From Candidatus Uhrbacteria bacterium (lineage in GTDB: Bacteria; Patescibacteriota; Patescibacteriia; UBA9934; GWF2-40-263), in NCBI GenBank assembly GCA_016208545.1, contig JACQXU010000048.1, positions 1 to 42,018 of the forward strand: DNA of 42,018 nucleotides, in the 5' to 3' direction. Positions within the stretch are counted from its first letter, which is position 1; each line of letters opens with the position of its first letter. The position numbers and the translations under genes were made by a program. The notes beneath the pieces are model-generated. The model did no database searches and was not told the origin of the DNA. It worked only from the letters and a program-made list of their open reading frames with translations. Positions 16,449-37,782 of the stretch are shown one piece after another.

Positions 16449-16451
16449 TAT

Positions 16452-17675: not shown

Positions 17676-17676
17676 T

Positions 17677-18324: not shown

Positions 18325-18348
18325 TTATGAAACAGTCGCGAAACATGT

Positions 18349-18427
18349 CATTGCGAGGAGCGAAGCGACGAAGCAATCTCTGCAAACTAGGAGATTGCTT
18401 CGCTCCCTTTTGGTCGCTCGCAATGAC
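18349..18427. repeat. Palindromic element of about 80 bp (family R2), second copy
   Basis: cattgcgaggagcgaagcgacgaagcaatctc tgcaaactagg gagattgcttcgctccc...cgctcgcaatgac. The ATG chosen for the next gene (18423) lies in the terminal caATGac. Confidence 0.85.
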
Positions 18428-19941: not shown

Positions 19942-21228
19942 ATGTTCATCTGCACTCACTGCGACGCGCAATCACAAAAATGGGCTGGAAGATGTTTTGA
20001 ATGCCAGAAATGGGGGACGATGGTTGAACAAGAAGTAACTTCAAAAAAAACAACGTCCGCTTCAAATACGCGCGCTAAAGAATCAAAAAAACTTTCAGAA
20101 CTAGCAGGACAAAACGAACACACACGAATACAAACACTTGAGCCTGAAATTGATCGTGTACTCGGAGGAGGGATCGTTAAAGGATCTCTCGTTCTTTTAT
20201 CTGGAGAACCCGGAATCGGCAAATCAACACTCGTAGCTGAAATAGCGAAACGTTTTGTCGAACAAGGAAATCCTGTATTGTATATTTCCGGCGAAGAGTC
20301 AGCGCCTCAACTTAAAACAAGATTTGATCGCTTGAACACAAAATTAGATCAACTATTTTTTCTTGAAGCTGGATCAGTCGAATCAATCGTTCAAACAATT
20401 GAAAAAGAAAAACCAAAAATTGTTGTGATTGATTCAATCCAAACTTTATTTTCAGATGGAATCGACAGCACTGCCGGAAGTCCGACAACGGTTCGCTACG
20501 CGACTTCCCTTTTGCTTGAACTTGCAAAACGAACTCATGTTTCAATTCTTCTGATCGGCCAAGTTACAAAAGACGGCATGGTCGCAGGCCCAAAAACCCT
20601 CGAACACCTTGTTGATGTTGTCTTATCGCTCGATGGAGATTCTTCTCATTCATATCGCTGGCTTTCATGCTCAAAAAATCGTTTTGGCGCCACAGACGAA
20701 GTCGGTGTATTTGAAATGACTTCGCAAGGACTCAAGCCAGTTACAAATCCATCTGCAAAATTTTTGGAAGAACGAGTTGCGGTACCTGGTTCTGTAATTG
20801 CCGCGACAGTCGAAGGTTCTCGCGTATTTTTAGTTGAAATTCAAGCGCTTGTTGAAAAAACTTCCTATGGAATTCCTGTGCGCCGCGCATCTGGATTTGA
20901 TCAAAATCGGTTGCAAATGCTGATCGCAATTCTTTCAAAACGAGCAGGATTAAAACTCGGCGAACAAGATATTTATGTAAACGTAATCGGCGGAATGAAA
21001 GTTACAGAACCGGCTGTTGATCTGGCTGTGTGTGCTGCGATAATAAGCGCATCAAAAAATACCGCGTTTGAAGAAGCTACTGTTTTTTTCGGCGAAGTCG
21101 GACTTGGAGGAGAAATAAGACGAGTTACAGCATCTGAAAAACGTTTGGCAGAATCAAAACGTTTAGGACTAAAAAAAATCTTCGGACCCGAGATTGGGAA
21201 TATAAATAAAATTTCAGAACTATTCTAA
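19942..21228 (+). CDS. radA: DNA repair protein RadA/Sms
   Basis: N-terminal zinc finger (CTHCDAQSQKWAGRCFEC), RecA-like Walker A (GEPGIGKST), KNRFG motif, Lon-protease-like C-terminal domain. Start at ATG 19942, directly after the preceding stop. Confidence 0.94.
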   Translation: MFICTHCDAQSQKWAGRCFECQKWGTMVEQEVTSKKTTSASNTRAKESKKLSELAGQNEHTRIQTLEPEIDRVLGGGIVKGSLVLLSGEPGIGKSTLVAEIAKRFVEQGNPVLYISGEESAPQLKTRFDRLNTKLDQLFFLEAGSVESIVQTIEKEKPKIVVIDSIQTLFSDGIDSTAGSPTTVRYATSLLLELAKRTHVSILLIGQVTKDGMVAGPKTLEHLVDVVLSLDGDSSHSYRWLSCSKNRFGATDEVGVFEMTSQGLKPVTNPSAKFLEERVAVPGSVIAATVEGSRVFLVEIQALVEKTSYGIPVRRASGFDQNRLQMLIAILSKRAGLKLGEQDIYVNVIGGMKVTEPAVDLAVCAAIISASKNTAFEEATVFFGEVGLGGEIRRVTASEKRLAESKRLGLKKIFGPEIGNINKISELF

Positions 21229-23728: not shown

Positions 23729-24244
23729 TCACAATTTATACATGCGACGGGCTATATCTGTCAATCGTTCTTCCTTACGATTCAGATTTTCAGCACAAAA
23801 CGGCAGTAAGGACGAACGAACTTGATTTGGATCCATTTCCTCAAGTGGAATTGAAAGTATTGGATGCCAGTGGCTATGAAAATCAATATACAAAATCTTT
23901 GTAACTGGCGGATCGTAGATGATTGAAAAATCTCGAATCGCGTCAAAGTCGTAATATGTGTCATCAATCAAAACTCCTGTTGTGGTGATCATGACAGGAA
24001 CTCGGTCTGGCTCTTTGAAAGTTGAGATGAGCATAATCACTCCGACCATGAGAATAATGACTGCAAACAAAAAGTTAGCAGTCGCAATCGCGTACACAAT
24101 CAGTGCCACTCCAACGATTGTTGCAACGATATACCAAGTTCGCGAACGTTCGTAGCGTGGATATTCGTCAACTTCCCATTCAAGAATCGGCTCTCCGATA
24201 TCAACGGATTCTTCTGCTTTTAATGATATGTTTTGTTCTTCCAT
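23729..24244 (-). CDS. Hypothetical two-TM membrane protein
   Basis: ORF with two adjacent TM helices (WYIVATIVGVALIVYAIA, FLFAVIILMVGVIMLI) and a soluble C-terminal domain. The ATG at 24244 is preferred over the TTG at 24280. Confidence 0.55.
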   Translation of the reverse strand: MEEQNISLKAEESVDIGEPILEWEVDEYPRYERSRTWYIVATIVGVALIVYAIATANFLFAVIILMVGVIMLISTFKEPDRVPVMITTTGVLIDDTYYDFDAIRDFSIIYDPPVTKILYIDFHSHWHPILSIPLEEMDPNQVRSSLLPFCAENLNRKEERLTDIARRMYKL

Positions 24245-24340
24245 ATGTGGGATACACGCCGAATTTCTGTTGGTGACCAATCCAGAAATACAGCTTAGTA
24301 AAGAGACGAATTAACTGTTTACAGGCAGGGTTCGCGGTGT

Positions 24341-25341
24341 ATGAACCACGACACCGCGAACTCGGCCTGTAAACACACAAAATCGATTAAGTTTGGAGGA
24401 CGTCGTAGACAGTGCATCTCCTGTAAAAAGACGTGGTCTGTGCGTGCTAGAAAGCGTGGTGCAAAGCCTCGCAAAAATCACGTGATGAGTCTCGAGAAAA
24501 CATTCGTCGAGAAACTTACACTCGTGCAACAAGCACGCAGAGCTCACAAGAGTGCAAATGCGTTTTCAAAACAACACGCACAAACACTTACGGGTCTGTG
24601 TGAAAAACAATGGCCGCACACCGTCCCTGAAGGATCACTCGTTCTTGTCATGGATGGCATCTGGTTTACGTTGAATGAGAGCCGTACACGGTCTACCTCA
24701 CAGGATTTCGTCAGGTTCAGGGTGACACTCTGCATTTCTTGCCACCCATTCTGCGACCCGGTCACGAGTCTCAGAAGCAGTGGAGAGAAGTCTTAGATGC
24801 AATCCCTCAAGAGATCCATCATCGTATTTGTGCCGTTGTTTCGGACAGTTTTAGTGGTGCTGGTGGTCTCGCGAAGAAGTACAGTTGGATCTTTCAACGA
24901 TGCCAGGCACATCTCTTACTACGGTTGTCGACGCTGTGCGGTGACAACAAACTGGCGGTGAGTTGGAGAGAAGGTCGTCAAGAAATTAAACGTCTCATGC
25001 ACACACTCATGAACACAAGGGACGAGAAGAAGGTTTCAACAATCGTCGAGCAACTTCTCGCTCTCGGTGCGCATCCACAGTGTCCACAACGACTACGTCA
25101 GATTGTGAAACGAACTGTGAGAACGCTCAACGAGTATCGCGCGTGTTATCTCCATCCAGAACTTCGTTTACCGGCAACGACCAACGCAGTTGAGAATACG
25201 AACGGAAGGATTCGCTCTGTCCTGAATCGTGCTCGTGGTTGTCGGACTCCTGAATCGCTCATTCATTGGATCACAGCCTTTCTCTGGTTCCATCCAACAG
25301 TGAAATGTCGACCAAAGTTACCAACAGAATTAAAGCGTTAA
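24341..25341 (+). pseudogene. DDE transposase with a single frameshift (IS remnant; family uncertain, IS256-like or IS1-like pattern)
   Basis: Frame 2 gives a zinc-finger-like N terminus (CKH..RRQCISCKKTW) and LVLVMDGIWFTLNE. Homology-like sequence continues in frame 1 from about 24679 (EPYTVYLTGF...ESQKQWREVL...AVVSDSFSG...QRCQAHLLLRL...TTNAVENTNGRIRSVLNRARG). No slippery heptamer at the shift. Visibly more GC-rich than the flanks. Confidence 0.7.
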
Positions 25342-25405
25342 TGCCGTATATGTAGATATTTTAACATGATTCTTGATTATTCTCAAAGGATCGCGTATTC
25401 TATGG

Positions 25406-25577
25406 AACAAACATTATGAAACCGCATTTAAGTCGCCGATGGTTTGGCAATATTGTTCATTTTGGAACGAGAAATTTATGAAACGTAGCCGTAGCTACGT
25501 TGAGTAAATTTCTTGGGAAAGATGAATAAGATTGGCAAATCCAGCAAGACTTGGAATGCGGTTTCATAATGTTTGTT
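25406..25577. repeat. 172-bp element with perfect 23-bp terminal inverted repeats (MITE-like, or a long hairpin RNA)
   Basis: AACAAACATTATGAAACCGCATT at 25406-25428 and its exact reverse complement at 25555-25577. The interior arms are partly complementary around a central cgtagccgtagctacg palindrome. Confidence 0.75.
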
Positions 25578-25591
25578 ACATATTCATGTCC

Positions 25592-25660
25592 GGAGAGGTA
25601 CACAAGAGGGTGAGTCCCGAGCGAGCGAGGGACGAACGGGCGGTAAAGACCGCCCGGGCA
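25592..25660 (+). other. tRNA-Ser 5'-fragment-like sequence followed by a GC-rich hairpin
   Basis: ggagaggtacacaagaggg matches the first 19 nt of the tRNA-Ser at 25706 (ggagaggtacccaagaggc) in 17 of 19 positions. The CGGGCGG-TAAAGA-CCGCCCG hairpin follows. I could not find a T arm or 3' acceptor. Confidence 0.4.
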
Positions 25661-25705
25661 GACTCTTGGGTTCTGATTTTTGATCGAGGCTATGCCGAGA
25701 AATAC

Positions 25706-25800
25706 GGAGAGGTACCCAAGAGGCTGAAGGGGGGAGATTGCTAATCTCCTAGGTCGGCTTTAAAACCGGCGCGAGGGTTCAAATCCCTCCCTCTCCGCCA
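25706..25800 (+). tRNA. tRNA-Ser (anticodon GCT), long variable arm, CCA encoded
   Basis: GGAGAGG TA CCC AAGAGGCTGAA GGG G GGAGA TTGCTAA TCTCC [variable arm] GAGGG TTCAAAT CCCTC CCTCTCC G CCA. Confidence 0.9.
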
Positions 25801-25837
25801 GTTCAATGAAGCCAATTGCTTGGCTTTATTGAACTGG
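25798..25837 (+). terminator. 18-bp-stem hairpin overlapping the tRNA CCA end (terminator or processing signal)
   Basis: CCAGTTCAATGAAGCCAA ttgc TTGGCTTTATTGAACTGG, with one G-T wobble. There is no clear T-run after it, so intrinsic-terminator function is uncertain. Confidence 0.5.
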
Positions 25838-25870
25838 ACGCAGACAGATGTTGTTCACAATTTATGACAT

Positions 25871-25958
25871 GGAGGGGTGCTCCGAATTGGTTAAGGAACT
25901 AGTCTTGAAAACTAGCGCCCGAAAGGGCTTGTGGGTTCGAGTCCCACCCCCTCCGCCA
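25871..25958 (+). tRNA. tRNA-Ser (anticodon TGA), long variable arm, CCA encoded
   Basis: GGAGGGG...CTAGT CTTGAAA ACTAG [variable arm GCGCCCGAAAGGGCTT] GTGGG TTCGAGT CCCAC CCCCTCC G CCA. Confidence 0.9.
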
Positions 25959-25989
25959 ATACTTAAATAATTTTTCAAGGAATCTTTGC

Positions 25990-26718
25990 ATGCATCAAAG
26001 TTACAAAAAACTACTCGATGAACATCTCTCAAAAATTAAACCTTTTTTTGATGTAAATTTTCTTTCAACTCCAAATAAAAAAAATCCGCTCGTCAAATTT
26101 TCAAAAAAAATATCAGAAGACACACCATTATTGGTTCTAATGGCTGGATGTCACGGAGAAGAACCAGCACCAACTTTGTCGATATTTAAAAATTATAAAT
26201 TAATTTCAAATACTGCAAAAAAATATCATGTAAATCTTGTAATTTATCCACTTGTGAACCCTTGGGGATTCGACAGAAATAAACGCTTGAATAAAAAAAG
26301 TTTGAACTGTAATAGCAATTGGATTCATAAAAAAAATAATCAAATCGCAGATGAAGTTAAAATCATATCTAGAGATTTAAAAAAGCTGAAACCAAAAATT
26401 TTTGCCAGTATCCATGAAGATGATGAAACAAAAAAAGAATTCTACATTTTTTCTTTCGGGGAAAGAAAATACGAAAATCCAATATTAAAAATTGGGGGGA
26501 AATATTTCCCAATTTTACAAGATGGAAAATACGATGATATTGAGGTAATCAATGGTGTGGTTTATGATCGCCACGATGGATCTGCGGAAGATTTTATGTT
26601 TCACCGTGGCGTTAAATTTTCCTGTTGCTCGGAAACACCATCCAAACAATCTATTTCAAAAAGAATCAAATGCAATATAGACGTCATTTTAAAATTGATC
26701 GAAATAGCCTCTAAATAA
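25990..26718 (+). CDS. M14-like zinc carboxypeptidase / succinylglutamate-desuccinylase-like protein
   Basis: 242 aa. MAGCHGEEPAP (GxHGxE zinc-ligand pattern), SIHED and GSAEDF motifs. Very AT-rich: two 60-nt lines I counted are 28% GC. Confidence 0.55.
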   Translation: MHQSYKKLLDEHLSKIKPFFDVNFLSTPNKKNPLVKFSKKISEDTPLLVLMAGCHGEEPAPTLSIFKNYKLISNTAKKYHVNLVIYPLVNPWGFDRNKRLNKKSLNCNSNWIHKKNNQIADEVKIISRDLKKLKPKIFASIHEDDETKKEFYIFSFGERKYENPILKIGGKYFPILQDGKYDDIEVINGVVYDRHDGSAEDFMFHRGVKFSCCSETPSKQSISKRIKCNIDVILKLIEIASK

Positions 26719-26723
26719 TAATT

Positions 26724-27425
26724 TCACATATTCCCTTTCGCGATCACGATTCCCCACACGCGTTTCACGCCGTGCTCTTTCAAACATCGAGCCGCAGAGT
26801 CCATTGTCGCGCCAGAAGTAAATACGTCGTCACACAACACAACTTCATCTGGAAATTCGGCTAATTGCGAATTTATAGAAAATAGTCCATCCAGCTCCCC
26901 GAGTTTTCTAACTTCGTGCGATTTTTGCGCTTGCGATTTTGTTTGACGAGTTCGAATAAGCAAATCAAAAACAGGACGATTAAAAATCTGTCCGCACCAG
27001 TCTGCTAAAATCCCAGCTTGATCAAATCCTCGTTCGCGGCGTTTGAAAATATGAAGCGGAATCGGCGCAAAAACAAAATTTGAAAATGGCGGCTGAAGAG
27101 CTGGCGCGCCGCGAACCAACCAGCGGAATAAAATATCTTGCGCGGTTTTGTCACCAATATATTTCCATTGATGAATCGCTTCGCGAACAACTGGATTTCC
27201 GTAATGCGCAAAAACAGAAAGTCCGTCCAAAAAACTTTCGTCTCGACATTTGTCGCACACAAACGACATCGAACCTTTTCCGCAGAACGGGCAGTCAAAT
27301 CGAACCGGCGCTGGCCACCAAGTTGTTGAGCATGTTAAACACCAAAGGGTGCCCTCTGTGTGACACCCCAAACAAAATCTAGGAAAAAGAGATTCTATAA
27401 CCAATCTGCTGATGCGACTTTCCAT
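26724..27425 (-). CDS. comFC: ComF family protein (ComFC-type phosphoribosyltransferase-fold competence protein)
   Basis: N-terminal Cys4 zinc-finger pairs (CLGC..CLTC; CPFC..CDKC) and a PRTase motif (VVLCDDVFTSGATM). Its start overlaps the upstream ORF by 31 nt. Confidence 0.88.
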   Translation of the reverse strand: MESRISRLVIESLFPRFCLGCHTEGTLWCLTCSTTWWPAPVRFDCPFCGKGSMSFVCDKCRDESFLDGLSVFAHYGNPVVREAIHQWKYIGDKTAQDILFRWLVRGAPALQPPFSNFVFAPIPLHIFKRRERGFDQAGILADWCGQIFNRPVFDLLIRTRQTKSQAQKSHEVRKLGELDGLFSINSQLAEFPDEVVLCDDVFTSGATMDSAARCLKEHGVKRVWGIVIAKGNM

Positions 27426-27976
27426 ACACCTTCGATTCTAGCGAGTTCAAGCAAAATTTCTTGATTTTCAACACTAACATTTTGTGGCGAATCTTTTGCA
27501 ATCTCTCGCTGTGTGTTCAGACGTATTTCTGCCGTGCCATTTACTTCGTCCATTTTTTCAACATTAACGATAAGGACAATTGTTGTCACACCATAGTACG
27601 TTTCAGGAAGAGTTGAATTTTCGATCATGACTTCTGTTTCCTGTGCAAAAGTATCTGTCATGAGCGGAAGTACATCAATCAAATTTTGAAAATTTGCTTC
27701 ATTTGAATAACTCCCATATCGCTCAGTGAAAATTTTCGCAATCGTAATAGCGCCAGCCGATTGATTTCGCGTGTCTTGTTCCTGTTTGAGCTGTTGTTCT
27801 TTTAGAGTTGGTTCTGATTCTGTTGTTCCTTCGGTAGTTTGTGGCGTTTCAACCGATGGTTCTGTTGAAGGCGATTCATCTGACTTAAACAAAAACCATA
27901 ATAACCACAAAAGCAACAATAAAAGAACAATAATAATCAAACCAATAACTGTTAAGCGCATTTTTCGTGTTGTCAT
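27395..27976 (-). CDS. Membrane-anchored protein with an NTF2-like C-terminal domain, candidate VirB8/TcpC-like T4SS component
   Basis: 193 aa. One TM helix (LTVIGLIIIVLLLLLLWLLWFLF), a Ser/Thr/Glu/Pro-rich linker, then a domain of about 120 aa ending in EILLELARIEGVWKVASADWL, typical of NTF2/Tim44-like folds. ATGA overlap with the virB4 stop. The assignment is inference. Confidence 0.45.
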   Translation of the reverse strand: MTTRKMRLTVIGLIIIVLLLLLLWLLWFLFKSDESPSTEPSVETPQTTEGTTESEPTLKEQQLKQEQDTRNQSAGAITIAKIFTERYGSYSNEANFQNLIDVLPLMTDTFAQETEVMIENSTLPETYYGVTTIVLIVNVEKMDEVNGTAEIRLNTQREIAKDSPQNVSVENQEILLELARIEGVWKVASADWL

Positions 27977-29985
27977 AATACTTCTTTAGATTCTTTTTCA
28001 ATATCAAATTCCTCCGCTCCGCTTTGCGCAGGCTGAAGCCTGCGGCTACCGTCTTCTTTTGTCTCCTCCAGCTTTTTCTCCGCCTCATCAAATTCCTTTT
28101 TTGCTCGTTCAATTTCGATCAACTGCTGTGGACTAGTTGTAACAAGCTGATCTTCTGTGTACGAAGCAACAACTTTAATCGCCGCGTGTTTTTGTCCAGC
28201 AAAGAAAATCCCCTCACCAACTCCAGATTCGAGCAAAAGATATTTTTCTCCATCTGTTAAATTGAAAGTTTTTTGAATAAGTTCAACTGCAGACGGTGAT
28301 TGTTTGAGTAAAAGTTGAAGAGCAGAGTTCGTGACAATCGCCTGGCCATAAGGTGAACGCAAAAAGTCGTTTACATCTTGTGTGATTGTTGTAACACCGA
28401 GCCAATACTTTCGCGCGCGTTTAACAAGCGCGAAAATAAATTTTGCTGAATCTTCGTTTGTCATCAGCCACCATGCCTCATCAATCACGAGAATTCTTTT
28501 CTTGCGTTCACTGCGTGTAACATTCCAAATGTAATTTACGATAGTGTAAATTCCAACCGGCCGCAATTCATCTTCCAAATCTCGTACAGAAAAAACAACA
28601 AGCTGATTTTTCATTTCAACAGTCGTTGGAGAGTTGAGGAGTCCTGCAAACGTTCCATCAGTGTATTTTTTCAACCTCGCAACAATCGCTTCAGCGCCTT
28701 CCATTCCTTCCAAAACATCTTGGAAATCCTGCATAATAGGCGGTTCGATATCTGCAAGTGTTGTGAGATCTGCTGTAATATCTTTTTTCGCGTATGTTTC
28801 AATGAGCGCGCGATCGAGAATCGAATCTTCCTCTGGTGTAAATCCGAGTTTACCTTCTTCTCCAATCGGCGTGCCAATCATAATTCGAAGTAAACCTTTG
28901 AGAGTGATGACGGCACTTCGAATAATATCATCAACTTTGGTTCCCTCTCCCACAGCTCGCGGCAAATCAAATGGATTCACTTTAGCCTCTGACGCAAGAG
29001 AAACATTGATGTACGTTCCACCAACTGCGTCTGACAAATGTTTATATTCCATTTCCGGATCAATCACAATAACGTCGGTTCCCATCATGAGCGAACGCAA
29101 AATTTCCAGTTTGATAGCATAAGATTTTCCGGCTCCGGAAGTTGCAAACACAACTGAATTTGCATTTTGCAAACTAAAACGGTCAAACAAAATTAAAGAA
29201 TTGTTATGACGATTGATTCCAAAAAGAATTCCGTTGTCTGAAGTTAAATCTGAACTAATGAATGGAAAAGAAGCTGCGATCGGAGACGTGTTCATGTTGT
29301 AATTGATCACGAGCTCATCGTTTCCAAGCGGAACAGTTGAATTGAAACCTTGTTCAGCTTGATAAAATCCAGCTTTTGTATAAATAAGTTTGCTTCCAAA
29401 AATTGCTTCAACTTCTGAACTGAAACGATCAAGTTCTTCTTCGCTTTTGGCATAAATTGTAACGTAAAAAGCGAATTGAAAAAAATGCTCTATGCCTTGA
29501 GTGATCGCATCGCGCAGTGCTTCGATGTCGCGAAGCGCCGTTTCAGCAAGTGGATCTCGAGGTGCGCCTTTTTCCGCGCTTCCAAAAATTTGCGCTTCAA
29601 GAACACCAACTTTTTTCTGAAGCTGTTTGAGGATGATGTTTGCTTTGAGTGGATAAAAAAACATTGCAACATCAAATGTTTTGTTCAGATTGATGAGCGA
29701 CGCAGACCATCCGAGTCCGATGTGGCGAGGATATGTAATAATAAAAATCGTGCGCACATAAACTCCGGAAAGCAAAAGCGAACGTGGCCGAACTTCAAAC
29801 GCGGCCGGTGAAATGATGTCTTTCACTGTTACGACGCCTTTGTGATAAATGCGCTCCTCTTCAAGAAGTTCGCGCTCTTTTTTGAGCGCTACTTCTTCCG
29901 GTTTGACTTTCTGCTCTTTTGGCGGAGGAGGCGTTGGAAGTGATTCTTTAATTTTTCCGATTTCGATAGCCATATTATTAGTCAT
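27973..29985 (-). CDS. virB4: VirB4/TraC-like type IV secretion ATPase
   Basis: 670 aa. Walker A VFATSGAGKS, Walker B RILVIDEAWW, and a VirB4-like N-domain pattern (YVRTIFIITYPRHIGLGW). Confidence 0.88.
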   Translation of the reverse strand: MTNNMAIEIGKIKESLPTPPPPKEQKVKPEEVALKKERELLEEERIYHKGVVTVKDIISPAAFEVRPRSLLLSGVYVRTIFIITYPRHIGLGWSASLINLNKTFDVAMFFYPLKANIILKQLQKKVGVLEAQIFGSAEKGAPRDPLAETALRDIEALRDAITQGIEHFFQFAFYVTIYAKSEEELDRFSSEVEAIFGSKLIYTKAGFYQAEQGFNSTVPLGNDELVINYNMNTSPIAASFPFISSDLTSDNGILFGINRHNNSLILFDRFSLQNANSVVFATSGAGKSYAIKLEILRSLMMGTDVIVIDPEMEYKHLSDAVGGTYINVSLASEAKVNPFDLPRAVGEGTKVDDIIRSAVITLKGLLRIMIGTPIGEEGKLGFTPEEDSILDRALIETYAKKDITADLTTLADIEPPIMQDFQDVLEGMEGAEAIVARLKKYTDGTFAGLLNSPTTVEMKNQLVVFSVRDLEDELRPVGIYTIVNYIWNVTRSERKKRILVIDEAWWLMTNEDSAKFIFALVKRARKYWLGVTTITQDVNDFLRSPYGQAIVTNSALQLLLKQSPSAVELIQKTFNLTDGEKYLLLESGVGEGIFFAGQKHAAIKVVASYTEDQLVTTSPQQLIEIERAKKEFDEAEKKLEETKEDGSRRLQPAQSGAEEFDIEKESKEVL
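28026..28056. repeat. R1 palindromic repeat embedded in frame in the virB4 3' region
   Basis: gcgcaggctgaagcctgcggctaccgtcttc matches 35829-35859 in 30 of 31 positions. It is translated as EDGSRRLQPA. Confidence 0.9.
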
Positions 29986-30020
29986 TGAGTCGTGGAGTCA
30001 TGAAGTCGTCATGACTCAAC
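29986..30020. repeat. R3-type GAGTC-word palindromic repeat in the spacer upstream of virB4
   Basis: tgagtcgtggagtcatgaagtcgtcatgactca. It covers the 23-nt spacer and the stop codon of the upstream ORF. Confidence 0.75.
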
Positions 30021-30689
30021 TTGTATTTCTTCAAGACTTGCCAATTTTTCTTCTTCAAACACATCTGGATTATACACATTGTAATAAAGTTCGATCAGAC
30101 TTTGTGTATCCAAACGCGCTGACGCGAGCCCCATACTATTCAAAGCTCCTTGAATTATTTCAACACGTCGCAAAATTTGTTCAATGCGGTCGTCGAGCTG
30201 TTTTTGATTTAACTTTGCCGATGCGGCCGGCGACAAAGATTCTGACAAACGCGTCCAAAAATTTTTCCGTTTATTTGTTAGCGGATCGTACGGCAAAACC
30301 AGATAAAACCGTTTTTGCATAATCTGTCCGAGTTCAACAAGCTCGCCAACAAATGTGCGGTAATCTAAAATCTGCGCGCGCAAAAGATCGTTTTCTGTTT
30401 TCCGTTCCTGATCTTTAAGAGCGTTCATGTAACCATCAATGTTCATGCGCCGTGATTGAATTACAATCTGAACTGGATATTCAAGACTGTTCAAAAACGA
30501 CATGTAAGCTTGAATGATTGCTTCTTGTTCGTCTTCGGATTTGAGCGCGAAATTGATACTCGAAACCAACAAAACCGCGCGAACAGTTCCATCTTTTAAT
30601 ATCACCATATCATCGCGAATCTCTGCAATATCAAGAAAATTTACGGTTGTTGGTCCTGGTTTTGGTTTGGCAAGTTTTTTTGAAAACAT
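30009..30689 (-). CDS. VirB4 N-terminal-domain-like protein with no ATPase domain
   Basis: 226 aa. VNFLDIAEIRDDMVILKDGTVRAVLLVSSINFALKSEDEQ...YPVQIVIQSRR parallels the N-domain of the adjacent VirB4 (VTVKDIISPAAFEVRPRSLLLSGVYVRTIFIITYP...). No Walker motifs. Confidence 0.5.
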   Translation of the reverse strand: MFSKKLAKPKPGPTTVNFLDIAEIRDDMVILKDGTVRAVLLVSSINFALKSEDEQEAIIQAYMSFLNSLEYPVQIVIQSRRMNIDGYMNALKDQERKTENDLLRAQILDYRTFVGELVELGQIMQKRFYLVLPYDPLTNKRKNFWTRLSESLSPAASAKLNQKQLDDRIEQILRRVEIIQGALNSMGLASARLDTQSLIELYYNVYNPDVFEEEKLASLEEIQVES

Positions 30690-30694
30690 AATCG

Positions 30695-31126
30695 TTATTC
30701 TTCGGGTTGATAAATTCCGCCAGTATTCACAATTAAAGAAAGTTCATTTAATCGTGAAATAGAAATCGGGGCTTTGCGCGGCTGTATTTTTGGCAATTCC
30801 GGCGGAGCTTGTTTCATAAAAATTTTCAGTTCTGAATCGGAATATTTTTTATCCCAAATGCGCAATTTTGGTTTTTTGAATGTCTGGATGATGTTTAGAA
30901 GGAAATAATGAAAAACTTGGCCGTTGATTTTCGCAAACGCAACTGTTCCTGCGATGATCACAATCGGCACTCCAACAAGCAGAAACGGAACAAATGATAA
31001 AAGTTTGAACAATCCGAAATCCAAAAGTCCGGCGATCATAAGAATAATAAATTGCCGCGCCGTAATGGGCCCGAAAATTTTATCTTCTGCGTCAATAAAT
31101 TGTGGAACAACAAATTGGTCGGGCAT
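30695..31126 (-). CDS. PrgI/TcpE-like (VirB3-analogue) small membrane protein
   Basis: 143 aa. N-terminal FIDAEDKIFGPITARQFIILMIAGLL, then a second TM helix, which is the PrgI-family pattern of Gram-positive T4SS. Confidence 0.6.
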   Translation of the reverse strand: MPDQFVVPQFIDAEDKIFGPITARQFIILMIAGLLDFGLFKLLSFVPFLLVGVPIVIIAGTVAFAKINGQVFHYFLLNIIQTFKKPKLRIWDKKYSDSELKIFMKQAPPELPKIQPRKAPISISRLNELSLIVNTGGIYQPEE

Positions 31127-31127
31127 A

Positions 31128-32681
31128 TCAAAACCTTATTTCCGAATTCAACTTTATAAGTGCATCATACTCGACACGTTTCAAATCCCCAAGTTCTGCG
31201 TCGATTCCTTTTCCATTCAACAAAGCTTTTTGAGTTACTTCCATATATTGCCGATATAATGGACAAGCCCGAAATGCCTGCACACCTTGAACGCGTTTTT
31301 CATATCCTTGTTCTTCCAAAAGATCGAGCATATCTTTTAGACGAGAAATTGCCTGCAAAGGCTCATTTGACAATCGGCGAAAACGCTCTAAATCCATCGA
31401 ACGCAATTCATCAACCGGTCCAGATAGTCGCCGAGTAAATTGAACATCTTGAACAAGAGGTTTTGGGTGTTGGGTGTTGGGTTTTGTTTGCGGAATTATT
31501 TTTTCAATCGCTTGTTTCACTTTCTGTGCGTCAATTCGTTTTGCTTGTTGTTCCAAATGACTCTGTATTGAACCAGCCGCTGTCGCTCGCGCAAGCGGAG
31601 GCGCGGCAGGAACAACAGACTCTGTAGGAACTTTTCCAGTAACAGAAACGTAACGCCTATTTAATAACTGCGTTTCTTTGTGTTTCATTTGTTCCAATTT
31701 TTCAATCTCTTCTTGTTTTTGAATCTGTTTTTCCTGTCTTTCTTTCACGATTTCTTTTTGTTTGCGGTAATGGAATGCTTCAACATTCTGTTCGATGACT
31801 TGCGCAAGTTTTTCAAGCTCAATCCCCGCCATTCCAAGCCCGCCTCCTTCAACGGATTTTGCAAGCATTGCCCTTGTTTGCATTTTGTCGCGAACATTGT
31901 GAACTCGTGTTACAACAATTTCTCGACAACGCTCTTTCAAAAATGGATCTTCCATAACGCTGGAAATCTCAAGACAAATTTTTGCAACCGCTTCGTCAAG
32001 AGAACTGATTGTCGGCTGTAAAATTTCATTGCGCGTTTCAATTACTTTTTTAATTTCCTCTTCATCTTTTTTTCCAAATGTATCGAGGCTTGGCGCGCGA
32101 AAAAATTCTCGATCAAATTTCTCTATAGTTTCTCGCGCAAACTGCTGATCCATTTCAAGACCAGCCAATTTGAATGGACGGCTTAGAAATTCAATCGTCT
32201 CTTCTTTTGATCGTTTCTTTTCTAAATAATCAAGTATGATTCTTTCAAGTCTGTGAAGTTTTTGCGGCTCAAGATCTTCAACAAATTTTGCGACGAATGC
32301 TCGAACCTGAATTTCTGGATTCATGGCAGTGGTTTGCGTTGTCGTGGTTTGATTCCAATTGCGAACACGATCGCGAAGTCCTGGAACTTGATCAAAAATC
32401 GGCGCAAAAATCCGGACAGTTACAACTGAAAATAAATCAATGATTCTTTCTTCTGACAATTCCAAACGCTCTTTCAAACTTTTTTTTAGTTCATATTCTG
32501 AATAATCACCTGACACAAAACGAAAAATATCAGCACCAAGCAAAGGAATTTGTTCTAGGCTTAACCCAAACTCTGTCGCGATCCGTCGTTCTTGCTCGGT
32601 TACCTCTGTTGAAAAAAAGTATTCCGCGACATCCGGCGGCAAAAATAATTTTGTTTGAGATGTTTGAGTTGGATCGATCAT
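31128..32681 (-). CDS. Hypothetical protein (517 aa, helical and charged) inside the T4SS-like operon
   Basis: Long ORF. ATGA overlap with the upstream gene, and 1-nt spacing to the downstream gene. No recognisable motif. Contains an in-frame 7-bp tandem repeat at 31464-31484. Confidence 0.6.
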   Translation of the reverse strand: MIDPTQTSQTKLFLPPDVAEYFFSTEVTEQERRIATEFGLSLEQIPLLGADIFRFVSGDYSEYELKKSLKERLELSEERIIDLFSVVTVRIFAPIFDQVPGLRDRVRNWNQTTTTQTTAMNPEIQVRAFVAKFVEDLEPQKLHRLERIILDYLEKKRSKEETIEFLSRPFKLAGLEMDQQFARETIEKFDREFFRAPSLDTFGKKDEEEIKKVIETRNEILQPTISSLDEAVAKICLEISSVMEDPFLKERCREIVVTRVHNVRDKMQTRAMLAKSVEGGGLGMAGIELEKLAQVIEQNVEAFHYRKQKEIVKERQEKQIQKQEEIEKLEQMKHKETQLLNRRYVSVTGKVPTESVVPAAPPLARATAAGSIQSHLEQQAKRIDAQKVKQAIEKIIPQTKPNTQHPKPLVQDVQFTRRLSGPVDELRSMDLERFRRLSNEPLQAISRLKDMLDLLEEQGYEKRVQGVQAFRACPLYRQYMEVTQKALLNGKGIDAELGDLKRVEYDALIKLNSEIRF

Positions 32682-35371
32682 GCTTTCTTTTTCGGACTCA
32701 AATTATCAAGTTCGCGTTTTGCAACGTCTATTTTTTCAACTTCTGTGTCAAGTTGGTTTGCTTTTTCTCTCAATGCTTTTACTTCGGTAGTTATGCCGAC
32801 CGCATCTTCTGCTTTTAATTCCTCTTTTCTATTTTTCAACGATTCTATGTTTCTTCGAATTGTACTCAACTCCGACAAGTCAGCTCCGCGCGAAGATTCG
32901 TTTGACAAATCTCGCTCAAGAGTTTGCACTTGCGCGTTAAGCTCTCTCAACGCCGCCGAACGTTCAGATTCTTTTATGTTTAATTGTGAATTTAATTGAT
33001 TTTTAGCGTTTGTAATGCGTTCTTCAGAAGCATTAGCAAAATTTTCTCGAACAAAATCAACGGGTTTTTCTTGTTTTGAAACTTGTGGAACACGACCAAA
33101 TTTTCCATCAAGACTTGCTGTTGAAGCATTTTCTTGCGCCTGACTTCGCTGAAGCCGCATATTAACAAGAGCCTCTGTTTCTTTAATCGGAGCTTTTCCT
33201 TGAGCTTTCGTCTGATCAATAACTGTTTTAAGTTGATTTTCAAGTTTGTCAAGCGCTTTCAATGTGTGGAATCTTTCTTCATCTTTTTGCGCGACTGTTT
33301 GGCCCTGTTTTGGAGCCGCTGTGTATTGGGCTGTCATGGCTGAAATGGCCGCGCTTGCGCGTTTCAAATCTCCGTCTTTGATTGCGATACTGGCAACGCG
33401 TTGTGCCGAATCTGAACCAGCACTAACAGCGTCTTTAACTGTTACAGTTCTCAAATCTTCATCTTTAACGCCAGCAAATCGCTCTTGCCAAACTTTCTTT
33501 TTGTCATCCCCAAAATGTCCTTGTTCAATCGCTTCAGCCGCTGTCATTGTTTTTTCAACTTTCTTTTTTATTTTTTTCTTCTTTCCATCTTTTCCAACAA
33601 CTTCTTCCTCTTCTTGAACTTCAACTTTAACATCGAGTCCGGAAAGTTTTTTACGAACATCATCATTTAATAACGCGCTGGATTCTAATGCTTTTACATC
33701 ATCTTTATCTTTGAGCAAACCAGCAGAGCCTGTGACATGCGCATATTTTTTCTTAAACTTTTCAAGAGAATCTGTTGTTTTTGCATCGCCTTTGAAATCT
33801 TCTTCCATTGATTTTCCATATCGACCCCAAAGTTTTTGAAGATTTCCGGACTTTGCCAATTCCTTTTGCATTTCTTCATCGCCAAGAGCATCTTTCATCA
33901 AAGCTTCTGCTTCAAATCTGCCGCCTAACGTGATTGTGCCGCTTTGCGCGAACCTTTCAAGTTGTTTGAGTTTGGTAGCTTTCGTATCATCCTTATATTT
34001 CTCACCAGCCTTTGCAACTTCCGCATGGCGGGAACCAAGACTTGCCTGCGCTTGTCGTTCAGCTACGACTCCGAGTGTTTGACCGATCACACCAGTTCCT
34101 GCCGCGCCAGCAACTTTTTGCCATGCGCGAGCACGTCCTCGCTGTGTAAGAAGTCCCGTGTATTTATTATTCTCCATTCTTCCGCCTATTTCTCTTGCGC
34201 CAGTGCGTCCAACAGCTCGAGCGCCAGCCCCAACTTTTCTGCCTGTCCAACCAGCGGTTTTAAGAGCCGCGCCTTTTGCAACTCCAAGCATTGCAGGCCC
34301 AGCCGCCACAGCTTTGCCGAGTTGCGCACCAAGAAACTTTCCTTTGATTCCAGAACAAATCTTTTGAGCTGTATCCATTCCAGCCATAATCATTGCCGAT
34401 CCAACAACAAGGCTCATAAAATTCTGAAGTTCAAAAATTTTCGTCAAAAAGCTGGCTGAATTGCCCAAATTTACAGTTCCTGTGTCAAAACCATCTGCTG
34501 TTGAACCAGCTCCGGCAACTGCAAGCGCAAGCCACAAGAAAAATGTGATCACAGGACCAATCGCAACAATACACTTAAAATTTGTCCACCATTCGGAATA
34601 TGCGTCTGATTTGATTATCGGAACGCCACCAATAAACCACGCAAGCGGAGCAAGCACAATCAAAACCCAAAGAGCAACAATGCGATACAACAAAATTCCA
34701 AACATGAGCAACATGATTACAAGCACCCAAGATAAAATAAAAACAGCGGCAATACTCGCAAACGCAAGATTCCATGATTCAACACCGGACCCTCCAGAAT
34801 TATTAAGCACGCCAGAACTGCTTGACAGGCTCCATACTTTATTGAGTCCAAACATTTCAATCATGTTTCCAGCAGCAATTTCACGAAGCGCGTTTGCAAA
34901 AGTGAGCATGACAACTTGTCCAAAATCAATCATGATGCCGGCAAGAGTTTTGGAAAAATTGATGAGGATCGCAAAAATGAGCAAGCGAGGAACTTGCGTT
35001 TGCCATTTGAACTTACTGCCGCCAAAAATTGTTCCAAAAGCAATTACAATGAGCACTATCACGAAAAACATGTTCACTGTGTCGCGCATGAGAGCCCAGC
35101 CAGCTGTGACAACAGGAGCGTTTGAAAAATTGTTGTAAAGCATGACAGGAACCAAATACTCGATTACTGTCGCGATCAAACCTGCTAGCAAGCCAGAAAA
35201 AAGGTTTCCAACTGTTGCAATCAAATTTGCAATGTCATCTCCTGACGGAAGCCCCCACGCAAACACAGGCTTAGCAAACAAAATTCCAAAAATAATTACA
35301 AATACAAAAAAACTTGCGCGGCTACGAAGCCACAAAAGAGTCGCGCTTGCGCGTCGTTTTATTTTCTGCAT
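32678..35371 (-). CDS. VirB6/TrbL-like polytopic membrane protein with a charged coiled-coil C-terminal extension of about 500 aa
   Basis: At least 7 predicted TM helices in the first 400 aa or so (e.g. LAFASIAAVFILSWVLVIMLLMFGILLYRIVALWVLIVLAPLAWFIGGV), then a Lys/Glu/Ala-rich tail. Start set at ATG 35371; the track ORF start at 35518 would overlap the upstream gene. Confidence 0.6.
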   Translation of the reverse strand: MQKIKRRASATLLWLRSRASFFVFVIIFGILFAKPVFAWGLPSGDDIANLIATVGNLFSGLLAGLIATVIEYLVPVMLYNNFSNAPVVTAGWALMRDTVNMFFVIVLIVIAFGTIFGGSKFKWQTQVPRLLIFAILINFSKTLAGIMIDFGQVVMLTFANALREIAAGNMIEMFGLNKVWSLSSSSGVLNNSGGSGVESWNLAFASIAAVFILSWVLVIMLLMFGILLYRIVALWVLIVLAPLAWFIGGVPIIKSDAYSEWWTNFKCIVAIGPVITFFLWLALAVAGAGSTADGFDTGTVNLGNSASFLTKIFELQNFMSLVVGSAMIMAGMDTAQKICSGIKGKFLGAQLGKAVAAGPAMLGVAKGAALKTAGWTGRKVGAGARAVGRTGAREIGGRMENNKYTGLLTQRGRARAWQKVAGAAGTGVIGQTLGVVAERQAQASLGSRHAEVAKAGEKYKDDTKATKLKQLERFAQSGTITLGGRFEAEALMKDALGDEEMQKELAKSGNLQKLWGRYGKSMEEDFKGDAKTTDSLEKFKKKYAHVTGSAGLLKDKDDVKALESSALLNDDVRKKLSGLDVKVEVQEEEEVVGKDGKKKKIKKKVEKTMTAAEAIEQGHFGDDKKKVWQERFAGVKDEDLRTVTVKDAVSAGSDSAQRVASIAIKDGDLKRASAAISAMTAQYTAAPKQGQTVAQKDEERFHTLKALDKLENQLKTVIDQTKAQGKAPIKETEALVNMRLQRSQAQENASTASLDGKFGRVPQVSKQEKPVDFVRENFANASEERITNAKNQLNSQLNIKESERSAALRELNAQVQTLERDLSNESSRGADLSELSTIRRNIESLKNRKEELKAEDAVGITTEVKALREKANQLDTEVEKIDVAKRELDNLSPKKKA

Positions 35372-35439
35372 ATCTGATCGAATTATATCAGAAAAACAAA
35401 AGAAAAACCTGTGCGTTTGTGCACAGGCAAGAGTAGTAA

Positions 35440-37368
35440 CTACGGGTTGCACTCGTTTGCAGTCCCGATTTTGAGCAAGGCAGAGCAACCAGATGCCGGG
35501 CCTCCAGGAGCGGACCACGTTGTTAGATCGAACGTTGTGTAGATAACTCCTTTGTAGATGATCTCGATGCTCGCGTCTGGGTCGAGGCTCGCAGTGATGC
35601 CGTTCCCGGCACAGAGCCAGGAAGTGGCAGGGTTGCCTTCACTCACATTGAGCCGGAAACCGCAAATTCCATCCGGAACCTGCTCGAACGAAAGAGATAC
35701 GTCGTTGTCAGAATCGAATTCTGACTTGTCCCACCAACCGCCAAGATCTGACTTTTGGTAATACGCCTGAACGTTAAGTGTCCGAGGCGCAGAGTACGGA
35801 TAGGTCACGATGAAAGAAACGGAGTCAAGCGCAGGCTGAAGCCTGCGGCTACCATCTTCTTCAGCCTCTTCAGCTTCTCCAGCTTCTTCCTTGAATCCAG
35901 CCATTTCGATCTCACCAGTGTCGTCTTGGTCAATGTACGGTTCATCCTTGGCCACAAGCATGGAATGGCCGCAGGTTGTCACGACTTCGCTTGAAATGCA
36001 GTATATGCCGCTCGCGCAATCGCCAACGACCTTTTGCACAGCAAGCACGACACCGCTGTCAACTTCGATGATCGGTCGCTCACCGAAACCGAGCAGAGTA
36101 AACGTGTGCCAGTCCTTGATCGGCATGGCGACATTTTGTTCAGCAACATACACGTCGCTCTTTGTATACTCTTTGATCAGAGTGCCATTTCGAAACTGCG
36201 CCAGACCGTCTTTCTCAGGCCAGTTCGAAAGATATGAATTCGACCAGTCAACGATTGGCGGAGGATCCCACGTGTAATACGAAAGTCCCCAGGAAGAAAG
36301 GACCGATTCCCAGCCGATCTCGTCTACTTTGATTCTGTACCGATTCCACTGGTTGGCGAGTCCATTCAACAGCCAAATCTGACCGAGCGGATCTCGAACA
36401 GCCTTGACAAATCCGGCATCGGAAATGTCAACGCCTTTCTTGTAACACGCCAGCTCTTCGTCAGAGATGATCACGAGATCCGAGAAGTCGTAGCCGAGGC
36501 TCCAGAACACGTTTTCGTTCGTGATCCATCGAACCTCGCCGTTTGAGATCAGATAGACTTTCGAATCATGCGCGGTCTTCACGAGAGTGCCGTCCGGATG
36601 CGAAAGCGCAACCGGAAGCGCGGACGTGTAATACTTGCCAACAGGCTCATCATCACCCTTTTTGCCGGTTCCAAGTCCACACACGAACTGTTCGCTTTCG
36701 AGCGTCTTTTCTTCACCGGAAGAATCGGAAACGACGTATGTCGCAGGAACCGACTCGCCGTTTTCTGCCGGAAGAGTCGCGTCGCCTTTGTGAAGGCCGA
36801 CGTGAACGTGGTCGCCGGTGCATTTTCCAGTACAACCTTCGATTCCAATCAGCTGTCCGACCGCAACCTCGCACCCGTCGCAGACGATAATCTCGTCCAA
36901 GTGCGCGATCACGACGTAATAGCCGTTTCCGAGGTCAATACAGACGTGATTTCCGAATCCACTTCCGGTTGCCGCGAAAGTGTGGACGTACGCGTATCCG
37001 GAAACTGACGCATACAGCTCCCAACGTTCGACGTTTGAAGTGTCGAAGTCGAGATCGTTCGCAGTGCTCTTGAGGTAGTGGGTGTACTCGCCGCCAGCGC
37101 CCTGCGTGCACAGAATCGTCATGCCGTTCGGCAGAGGAATCTGCAACACGATTACACCTCCTCCGCCCTTGTTGCTGTTGTCTCCCTTGTTGCTGTTGTG
37201 GTTGAAAGGTTCGACCGACTGCTCACTCGTCTTCCCTGGCAAGTCGTCCTCATCAAGATCATGAGAGGACCCGCCACTTTGAGTATTCCTCGGAACCCGA
37301 ACGCACGCGAAGATGGAACACGCGACCAGAATTTGCAGCAACTTACTGCTAGAGAACTTGGTGAACAT
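35440..37368 (-). CDS. M23 (LytM-type) peptidoglycan endopeptidase, probable lipoprotein, with a large C-terminal extension
   Basis: Lipobox-like ILVAC. M23 motifs (THYLKSTANDLDFD; FGNHVCIDLGNGYYVVIAHL; GCTGKCTGDHVHVGLH). GC-rich: 55-58% in two 60-nt lines I counted. Confidence 0.8.
   Translation of the reverse strand: MFTKFSSSKLLQILVACSIFACVRVPRNTQSGGSSHDLDEDDLPGKTSEQSVEPFNHNSNKGDNSNKGGGGVIVLQIPLPNGMTILCTQGAGGEYTHYLKSTANDLDFDTSNVERWELYASVSGYAYVHTFAATGSGFGNHVCIDLGNGYYVVIAHLDEIIVCDGCEVAVGQLIGIEGCTGKCTGDHVHVGLHKGDATLPAENGESVPATYVVSDSSGEEKTLESEQFVCGLGTGKKGDDEPVGKYYTSALPVALSHPDGTLVKTAHDSKVYLISNGEVRWITNENVFWSLGYDFSDLVIISDEELACYKKGVDISDAGFVKAVRDPLGQIWLLNGLANQWNRYRIKVDEIGWESVLSSWGLSYYTWDPPPIVDWSNSYLSNWPEKDGLAQFRNGTLIKEYTKSDVYVAEQNVAMPIKDWHTFTLLGFGERPIIEVDSGVVLAVQKVVGDCASGIYCISSEVVTTCGHSMLVAKDEPYIDQDDTGEIEMAGFKEEAGEAEEAEEDGSRRLQPALDSVSFIVTYPYSAPRTLNVQAYYQKSDLGGWWDKSEFDSDNDVSLSFEQVPDGICGFRLNVSEGNPATSWLCAGNGITASLDPDASIEIIYKGVIYTTFDLTTWSAPGGPASGCSALLKIGTANECNP
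35829..35859. repeat. R1 palindromic repeat embedded in frame in the M23 peptidase gene
   Basis: gcgcaggctgaagcctgcggctaccatcttc, translated as EDGSRRLQPA in an acidic linker (EEAGEAEEAEEDGSRRLQPALD). Confidence 0.9.
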
Positions 37369-37601: not shown

Positions 37602-37782
37602 ATAGACATCACATTCCAAAATCGTACTCAATAACCCATTAAAATTATGACTGGCTTGTTTTTCACTCAGAAAAATCCTCAATGTATCTACAGATACATT
37701 TGCGGTTTTTCTGAGTTGCAAAACCGCGCCATTCATCAATTTTTCTTGGGTTCTAAGTATGATTTTGGAATGTGATGTCTAT
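37602..37782. mobile_element. 181-bp MITE-like element with terminal inverted repeats of about 26 bp
   Basis: ATAGACATCACATTCCAAAATCGTACT at 37602-37628 versus AGTATGATTTTGGAATGTGATGTCTAT at 37756-37782. The left 66 bp recur at window positions 1-66. Confidence 0.8.

Follow-up and report, generated by a model that had tools for sequence, protein, structure and literature searches.

What would a type IV secretion system (T4SS) transport if it has neither relaxase nor coupling protein and its operon ends in a gene for DNA uptake? This question is raised by a gene block on the minus strand (26724-37368) of a contig from a Candidatus Uhrbacteria metagenome-assembled genome (MAG), of which the entire 42,018 nt (the window) were analysed. 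Judged from its sequence, the block is a relaxase-less, chromosomal T4SS of MPF-FATA descent in the version of class ABY1 (which in GTDB includes Uhrbacteria; PMC10413278), and it no longer belongs to a mobile element. We are nearly certain that it represents the known, non-mobile T4SS of Patescibacteria. The function of this machinery matters, as the group accounts for much of the diversity of bacteria and its members live on other microbes to which they are attached, and the arrangement in ABY1, where two T4SS genes run straight into genes for DNA uptake or recombination, offers the clearest genomic hint as to the cargo.

Protein families were searched in Pfam and NCBIfam, with Pfam gathering scores and curated NCBIfam cut-offs as thresholds, and AlphaFold (AF2) models were compared with PDB and BFVD by means of Foldseek. 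A genome scan with VirB4 found 552 relatives, of which the best 80 (70–93% identity) were kept; all of these were uncultured MAGs, and informative titles among them named Uhrbacteria, Falkowbacteria, Parcubacteria or Patescibacteria. Counts per gene cover only the loci whose contig reaches far enough (denominators 32–75).

Composition and conservation of the gene block

Eight co-directional open reading frames (ORFs) fill the block. They are listed here in gene order, together with two sites located between the first two genes:

35440-37368, minus strand: M23 metallopeptidase, probable lipoprotein, 642 aa (PF01551, 47.2 bits against a cut-off of 28.7)
35407-35428, minus strand: terminator-like hairpin (8 bp) with T-run, between the M23 gene and the VirB6-like gene
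35390-35382, minus strand: TGATATAAT motif, 10 nt ahead of the VirB6-like ATG at 35371
32678-35371, minus strand: extended VirB6-like polytopic membrane protein, 897 aa (ATG at 35371)
31128-32681, minus strand: U517, orphan soluble all-helical protein, 517 aa (AF2 model; no family match)
30695-31126, minus strand: PrgI/VirB3-like small membrane protein, 143 aa (PF12666, 40.5 bits against 27, E = 4e-10)
30009-30689, minus strand: TrsD/TraD-like protein, 226 aa (NF041427 TrsD, E = 8e-8, under the curated cut-off)
27973-29985, minus strand: VirB4-type ATPase, 670 aa (NF045971, CD1110 family, 331 bits against a cut-off of 325)
27395-27976, minus strand: VirB8-like bitopic membrane protein, 193 aa (AF2 model and Foldseek)
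26724-27425, minus strand: ComF/ComFC, 233 aa, last cistron (TIGR00201 and GntX matches)

The boundaries were identical to those of the original prediction, whose eight-gene layout and junctions were borne out by the ORF boundaries and by a reading of the junctions; in gene order, these measure +68 nt (M23 to VirB6-like) and then −4, +1, +5, +23, −4 and −31 nt. The order M23-VirB6-U517-PrgI-TrsD-VirB4-VirB8-ComFC was held across approximately 80 related genomes wherever the contig extends, and the arrangement is therefore not due to chance. In particular, 72 of 73 loci had comFC after the VirB8-like gene, at most 1.2 kb from the end of virB4. The Falkowbacteria locus recovered by the genome scan carries the full block, comFC included, so that the adjacency to comFC, for which a test of synteny had been suggested, was kept in that group as well. 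The M23 gene stood upstream of the block in 37 of the 46 relatives with enough sequence. In a more distant lineage (P0099 contigs), each contig ends right after PrgI.

The proposal that all eight genes form a single operon probably holds for seven of them. The 68-nt spacer between the M23 and VirB6-like genes, which is 94–98% identical in the two closest relatives (L001 and L002), contains both the hairpin at 35428-35407, the top-ranked terminator-like site of the region on the minus strand, and the TGATATAAT motif. Since a predicted terminator hairpin and this motif share a conserved spacer, the M23 gene is probably transcribed separately, and the seven genes from the virB6-like gene to comFC would make up the tight operon.

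The VirB4 ATPase carries Walker A (SGAGKS) and Walker B (ILVIDE) motifs and also matched PF19044 (E = 3e-28) and the structure of the VirB4 C-terminal domain (PDB 4AG5, E = 5e-45). It aligned to positions 176–730 of the 752 positions of the NF045971 model, with the canonical N-domain missing, and the 226-aa protein matched three VirB4 models (NF045975, TIGR00929 and NF045971) in their N-terminal parts. Because the ATPase aligns only from model position 176, VirB4 is considered to consist of two genes, as in pGO1-type systems; the NCBIfam and Pfam matches thereby agree with the earlier description of a VirB4 N-domain-only protein next to a VirB4 ATPase. A single virB4 gene broken by a frameshift or a sequencing artefact was rejected, as the split into TrsD-like and VirB4 genes was present in all 80 loci.

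Median identity was 75% for VirB4, 65% for SerRS, 63% for the TrsD-like protein, 58% for RadA and 50% for RecG, and it amounted to 31–39% for U517, the VirB6-like and VirB8-like proteins and ComFC. By these values, the motor is very strongly constrained, and the envelope and accessory parts evolve fast.

With regard to the wall and channel parts, the calls of an M23 hydrolase and of a PrgI protein were both confirmed, with PF01551 and PF12666 above their gathering scores. The M23 peptidase, which has a lipobox-like N-terminus (LVAC/IFAC), is a candidate for the cell-wall-opening enzyme analogous to VirB1, and the PrgI-like protein has a hydrophobic hairpin at residues 17–69. The VirB6-like gene had been listed in a GTG-initiated form of 946 aa, which is the maximal ORF; the ATG at 35371 yields 897 aa. 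Approximately 6–7 hydrophobic segments lie within residues 1–300 of its product, and a tail of about 500 aa is hydrophilic, rich in Lys, Glu and Ala, poorly conserved and probably a coiled-coil segment. No direct match of the protein was found in Pfam, NCBIfam or a profile search of PDB sequences. Of 60 orthologues, two matched PF04610 (TrbL/VirB6; E = 1.4e-5 at best) and none matched a different family, the neighbouring polytopic protein in a distant relative matched PF19590 (TrbL_3), and the gene was always located upstream of the U517 gene in related loci. This transitive hidden Markov model (HMM) evidence weakly suggests that the polytopic protein is VirB6-like; the proposed assignment has a weak footing through the two orthologues. 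As for the notion that its giant tail has no obvious counterpart, 'extended' VirB6 proteins whose hydrophilic tails are large have been described before (PMC12857230).

The 193-aa protein gave no match in sequence-HMM searches. Its AF2 model (pLDDT 90.7, 62-sequence alignment) predicts an N-terminal transmembrane (TM) helix at residues 4–30, an acidic linker and an alpha+beta NTF2-like domain at residues 58–192. The top Foldseek matches were CagV (6iqt), PrgL (7aed), R388 VirB8 (8rtd_Y) and DotI (3wz4), with TraE also matched (E = 1e-4 to 8e-4; TM-score by target 0.57–0.71), and the presence of VirB8 homologues among the best matches backed the earlier view of an NTF2-like VirB8 candidate. However, other NTF2-like folds (ARC6, the CaMKII hub) scored comparably to the VirB8 structures, and for this reason the call needs topology and gene context too: in the model, the NTF2-like fold is firm, and membership of the VirB8 family is supported by fold, topology and gene context together.

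For U517, which had been described as having no obvious counterpart, nothing significant was found in Pfam, NCBIfam, PHROGs or PDB sequence profiles; Foldseek against PDB and BFVD returned no match at E < 0.01 and detected no nucleic-acid-binding fold. The AF2 model (mean pLDDT 86, pTM 0.37), confident per domain and not in the domain arrangement, comprises several small helical bundles, a coiled coil at residues ~286–395 and a conserved C-terminal domain at ~405–517. The family of this domain has approximately 2,455 representatives at 50% identity, in which it is always C-terminal, in proteins of ~450–600 aa, and the gene always lies between the VirB6-like gene and prgI, Falkowbacteria included.

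Within U517, residues ~144–193 and ~250–300 form two similar modules with the motif R..R....GGLG. These repeats matched the C-terminal, RNA-binding portion of the SRP54 M domain at E = 0.05–0.1, which is below significance and unverified, and an NCBIfam match to Srp19 (E = 0.035) is likewise unverified. The modules could hint at nucleic-acid binding.

Chromosomal context

The rest of the contig is made up of housekeeping genes, namely dnaE, pheST, an rseP-like gene, tyrS, clpB, radA, recG, serS and a Ser/Thr kinase gene; among the flanking genes, serS was kept in 19 of 46 loci, recG in 22 of 32 and radA in 18 of 32. A scan that took in all sizeable non-shadow ORFs revealed no relaxase, VirD4/type IV coupling protein (T4CP), integrase or replication gene, and no oriT-like feature, on the whole 42-kb contig. 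The lack of a relaxase, coupling ATPase, integrase and replication gene, first noted for the block, therefore extends to the entire contig, and the flanking relaxase, VirD4 and integrase that were to betray an ordinary integrative conjugative element (ICE) are not there. G+C content was 0.38–0.43 from comFC to the 5' half of virB6, as in the rest of the contig, and 0.47–0.51 in the 3' half of virB6 and the M23 gene, with the same values at 39–42 kb.

An ordinary or decaying ICE that lies beside comFC by chance could be suspected from fragments of a Mutator-family transposase and inverted repeats 1.4–2.4 kb beyond comFC. This transposase block belongs, however, to an insertion of 2.4 kb (24341-26718), between comFC and the conserved genes for a 183-aa protein (P183), tRNA-Arg and RecG, that is absent from the closest relatives. 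The insertion holds the degenerate transposase fragments (24341-25341), two tRNA-Ser genes, an AstE/aspartoacylase-like gene and a 28-nt inverted repeat (25401-25428 / 25555-25582, 96% complementary). The gap between comFC and recG is a variable insertion hotspot in relatives, with ABC transporters, NUDIX proteins, serine recombinases and HNH endonucleases, and both this variability and the serine recombinases (3 of the 150 ORFs in the gap) would suit an ICE; no relaxase or T4CP was present among the 25 families listed of the 76 found in this variable region. Against an ICE stand the fixed order in approximately 80 genomes, the intact ORFs and the very high conservation of VirB4, together with the G+C content from comFC to the 5' half of virB6, which is like that of the remaining contig. 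With no relaxase, T4CP or integrase on the contig and with synteny fixed, we regard a conjugative element as effectively refuted and leave it only a negligible chance of being correct.

Repeated sequences were also noted in the window. An 18-nt palindrome, CGCAGGCT(G/A)AAGCCTGCG, occurs three times (3659-3676, 28027-28044 and 35830-35847), with no copy expected by chance and none present in 80 related loci. One copy is intergenic, upstream of dnaE, and the other two are in coding tails (the 3' end of virB4 and the M23 gene), where they lie in a 43-nt direct repeat and both encode EDGSRRLQPA in frame. The palindrome looks like a lineage-specific mini-element, similar to repetitive extragenic palindromes (REP) or miniature inverted-repeat transposable elements (MITE), that is tolerated in genes. 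The 579-nt intergenic region between serS and the M23 gene contains an imperfect palindromic element of approximately 184 nt (37602-37782; 45-nt arms, 82% complementary), which has no Rfam match and of which one arm is 97% identical to contig positions 1-72; this is a repeated element, which probably explains where the assembly broke. An Rfam scan of the window gave three tRNAs and no other family.

The comFC and radA junctions and the question of cargo

ComFC has N-terminal Cys4 zinc ribbons and a phosphoribosyltransferase (PRT) domain. It matched TIGR00201 over positions 1–186 of 190 (E = 2e-21; 76.6 bits, under the curated cut-off of 233.55) and GntX (E = 1e-13), and across 70 orthologues C18/C21/C29/C32 as well as the DDVxTTGAT loop for phosphoribosyl pyrophosphate (PRPP) reach a conservation of at least 90%; the nearly full-length TIGR00201 match and the conserved Cys4 and PRPP residues substantiate its identification as ComFC. 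A profile search of PDB recovered generic PRT loops only and not Helicobacter pylori ComFC, and a single-sequence search recovered nothing. In the work of Damke et al. in 2022, the ComFC family is said to be characterized by an N-terminal zinc finger and a PRT domain.

Two start codons come into question for comFC, ATG at 27425 (31-nt overlap) and TTG at 27404 (10-nt overlap), both inside the VirB8-like gene. Sixty of 75 loci had the start inside that gene, most often at −31 nt. As more distant relatives preserve a −10 or −4 start instead, the exact start is uncertain and the overlap is firm; the 31-nt overlap of the original prediction stands as an overlap, its length applying only if the ATG is used.

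A second junction of this kind is located outside the block, on the far side of recG:

18327-19940, plus strand: membrane protein with T4SS_pilin and Amidase_2 domains, 537 aa (PF18895, 25.5 bits against a cut-off of 26.6; PF01510, E = 6e-14)
19942-21228, plus strand: radA/sms recombination helicase (KaiC/AAA_25/ChlI/zinc-ribbon), a neighbour that is co-operonic with the pilin-amidase gene
21220-23271, minus strand: recG branch-migration helicase (RecG_wedge, DEAD, Helicase_C), a neighbour

The pilin-amidase gene lies approximately 8 kb from virB4, and its stop is 1 nt ahead of the radA ATG (19942); RadA relatives align from residue 17–18 of the listed ORF. PF18895 was matched in all ten orthologous regions tested, seven of them above the cut-off, and radA was immediately preceded by a pilin-domain gene in 14 of the 14 relatives whose contigs leave room for one (at least 1 kb). 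In relatives, recG is encoded 1.4–8 kb downstream of comFC on the same strand (22 of the 32 with at least 9.5 kb downstream). From the comFC and pilin-radA junctions it follows that two T4SS genes were independently joined to genes for DNA uptake or recombination.

Besides the VirB2-like hairpin, the pilin-amidase protein has an N-terminal region rich in Cys and, at its C-terminus, the Amidase_2 domain, which in one relative (L025:12986-13906) is replaced by a Peptidase_C39-like domain. A pilin-like hairpin fused to exchangeable wall hydrolases is unusual, as VirB2 proteins are mostly small. Ahead of the pilin-amidase and radA genes, three genes in the same direction (15756-18324, plus strand), whose synteny is held in several relatives, encode an Ala/Gly-rich protein of 230 aa that has a hydrophobic hairpin at its C-terminus, a TM-anchored protein of 407 aa that resembles a beta-propeller, and a DsbA-like thioredoxin; these may be further envelope parts of the system. 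The gene of the 183-aa protein (23729-24280, minus strand; two TM helices, weak match to a bacterial pleckstrin-homology domain) is kept between comFC and recG, on the same strand, in approximately 25 related loci, and the protein could be a further accessory or a mere neighbour.

On the basis of the virB8-comFC and pilin-radA junctions, the role of ComFC with single-stranded DNA (ssDNA) and the ComB and Ced precedents, we tentatively propose that the system performs a DNA-import step, a plausible reading in which direction, cargo, assembly and any contact between ComFC and the T4SS are inferred. The M23 peptidase and the pilin-amidase protein would open the cell wall, the VirB6-like, PrgI/VirB3 and VirB8-like proteins would build a channel in the single membrane, and the split VirB4 (TrsD-like N-domain protein and ATPase) would dock on this channel and supply power. 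The VirB2-like hairpin protein would give the external part that contacts the host cell, with U517 as a cytoplasmic accessory. DNA, as at least one cargo, would move inwards and reach the cytoplasmic face as single strands, where membrane-associated ComFC would receive it and hand it to RadA/RecG-assisted recombination or to nucleotide salvage. ComFC is a membrane-associated, ssDNA-binding protein that links DNA transport with recombination (PMC9005727), DNA is imported by H. pylori ComB, a T4SS without relaxase or T4CP (PMC13395361), as well as by the Ced system of Sulfolobales (PMC12102498), and the retention of comFC in 72 of 73 loci exceeds that of SerRS (19/46) and RecG (22/32). If true, DNA import would explain how nucleotide-auxotrophic cells get nucleic acids and genes from their hosts.

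Several points weigh against DNA import. In Southlakia, a saccharibacterium and the sole genetically tested patescibacterium, transposon sequencing found the T4SS to be essential for epibiotic growth and comEC, comF and dprA to be dispensable, and transformation requires comEC (PMC10633639); these findings are repeated in a 2025 review (PMC12857230). They imply that the core role of the T4SS across the phylum is not transformation of the ComEC/ComF type. Linkage with comF, recG and radA has been reported for class ABY1 only (PMC12102498), the loci examined here were all Uhrbacteria- or Falkowbacteria-like, and the linkage could go back to one ancestral event of operon accretion whose result was preserved for co-expression. 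The cluster contained no recognisable nuclease, DNA-binding protein or component that would generate ssDNA. Furthermore, the usual partner of ComFC is ComEC, which may be encoded elsewhere in the genome, and RadA and RecG also serve general repair.

The Southlakia genetics, with an essential T4SS and non-essential com genes (PMC10633639), would also be in line with a host-contact conduit for cargo other than DNA, which either delivers effectors or adhesive parts into or onto the host cell or takes up metabolites or lipids of the host. In that case comFC, and radA behind the pilin gene, would be passengers under shared promoters in a reduced genome that has few of them. We hold this to be a real possibility, to be entertained with some reserve. 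Wang et al. (2023) suggested protein export or an 'alternative capacity' (PMC10633639), the 2025 review suggested uptake of 'various molecules' (PMC12857230), and the confinement of the comF linkage to ABY1 (PMC12102498) points the same way. Likewise, the conservation of VirB4 above its housekeeping neighbours fits an essential role other than transformation, and neither U517 nor the VirB6 tail revealed a domain for DNA handling. Nevertheless, the adjacency of comFC, with its embedded start, is kept more often than that of M23 (37/46) and every flanking gene, and in 14 of 14 loci radA is joined, independently of this, to another T4SS part, the pilin-amidase gene; accident accounts less easily for two junctions of this kind. 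Nor is any monoderm T4SS known to us in which proteins are exported with no coupling protein.

Movement of DNA in the outward direction, either as donation of chromosomal DNA, as by the T4SS of the gonococcal genetic island, or as conjugation with an unrecognised relaxase and a coupling protein encoded elsewhere, appears very unlikely. The ancestry of the system is conjugative (MPF-FATA), T4CP homologues occur elsewhere in many Patescibacteria genomes, and unusual relaxases are possible (PMC12102498); the genome studied here may likewise encode a coupling protein outside the contig. However, the contig has no relaxase, T4CP or oriT-like feature, relaxases were reported from 103 Patescibacteria genomes only, with 15 of 109 homologues close to virB4 (PMC12102498), the known role of ComFC concerns incoming DNA only (PMC9005727), and the locus is fixed and syntenic, without element boundaries. 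None of the findings named beforehand as refuting was made, and the original view of a T4SS-derived machine rather than a conjugation system is supported.

DNA import could take a more specific form, which we judge unlikely although worth stating, in which the ABY1 T4SS is a conjugation machine working in reverse across one membrane. DNA from the host or the environment would pass through VirB6/VirB8/VirB3 and bypass ComEC, ComFC, produced together with the VirB8-like subunit, would serve as a dedicated receiver of ssDNA in the cytoplasm and so replace the relaxase and coupling protein, RadA, made together with the pilin-amidase protein, would complete recombination along with RecG, and U517 would be an adaptor between the ATPase and ComFC. 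Such a system would be the first T4SS DNA importer of a bacterial monoderm and a direct host-to-epibiont route for genes or nucleotides.

Comparison with known systems

A Patescibacteria clade of VirB4 related to MPF-FATA was described by Quiñonero-Coronel et al. in 2025 (PMC12102498). That survey lists TrsD, PrgI/VirB3, VirB6, VirB2-like pilins and M23-containing hydrolases as parts of the Patescibacteria T4SS, with VirB8 homologues almost exclusively in ABY1, and finds relaxases to be rare and seldom near virB4 and T4CP homologues to be mostly distant from it (PMC12102498). It further reports that T4SS loci of ABY1 are commonly accompanied by comF, recG and radA, 'suggesting functional coordination', and proposes the import of DNA or other macromolecules from hosts (PMC12102498). 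Both the original observation and the DNA-import hypothesis are thus a rediscovery of published work (PMC12102498, PMC10633639). As far as could be seen, four details are not stated in PMC12102498 and PMC10633639, namely the start of comFC inside the VirB8-like gene, the pilin-amidase gene abutting radA, the hairpin that separates M23, and the U517 family between VirB6 and PrgI. The modest additions made here are the comFC overlap, the M23 hairpin, the pilin-radA junction, the structural support for the VirB8-like protein and the definition of the U517 family. Since hint and hypothesis are in print, and no cultured member of ABY1 is known to us, the window adds detail and not a new direction.

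Compared with the conjugative T4SS of the MPF-FATA type (Trs/Tra of pGO1/pIP501, CD1110 of Clostridioides difficile CTn2, Prg of pCF10), the window resembles these systems in a VirB4 that passes the CD1110-family cut-off, a separate TrsD-like protein as in pGO1, a PrgI-type VirB3, an NTF2-like VirB8 with PrgL as a top match, a dedicated cell-wall hydrolase and the absence of outer-membrane parts. It differs from them in that the contig has no relaxase, coupling protein, oriT or element boundaries and in its class-wide chromosomal fixation; moreover, it has a VirB2-like pilin domain, which the Gram-positive systems are without, a terminal comFC and U517.

The likeness to H. pylori ComB and ComFC, a T4SS without relaxase or coupling protein combined with ComFC for the transport and handling of ssDNA, is a functional analogy for DNA flow in reverse (PMC13395361, PMC9005727). 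ComB belongs to the MPF-T systems of diderms, has VirB7/9/10 and a VirB11 ATPase, and brings dsDNA to the periplasm only, ComEC accomplishing the passage across the membrane, whereas the window system has one membrane to cross and comFC within the operon. No VirB9, VirB10 or VirB11 homologue was found in the window with Pfam and NCBIfam, which separates it from ComB-type systems. The Ced system of Sulfolobales (CedA, CedB) shares a minimal set of a VirB4/HerA-type ATPase, a polytopic protein and pilin-like small proteins, and it imports DNA across a single membrane without relaxase or T4CP; its accessory proteins differ from those of the window, and VirB4 scored 45.5 bits against the CedB model (cut-off 700) and 18 bits with CedD, so that it falls outside Ced. 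The 'extended' VirB6 of the Rvh system of Rickettsiales (PMC12857230) has, as in the window, a polytopic core and a large hydrophilic domain, although no homology is detectable between the window tail and the rickettsial tails.

The closest fit is to the T4SS of the Patescibacteria clade itself (Southlakia epibionticum SEML1_0006-0019, PMC10633639; ABY1 loci, PMC12102498), from which nothing categorical differs here. The window has the same VirB4 type, a separate TrsD-like gene, PrgI, a PF18895 pilin and no adjacent relaxase. The systems have in common a chromosomal, relaxase-less locus with MPF-FATA-related VirB4, TrsD-like and PrgI/VirB3 proteins and PF18895 pilins, the polytopic protein of the window being a putative VirB6 counterpart, and they share M23-type hydrolases in the role of VirB1, the VirB8 of ABY1, and comF, recG and radA nearby.

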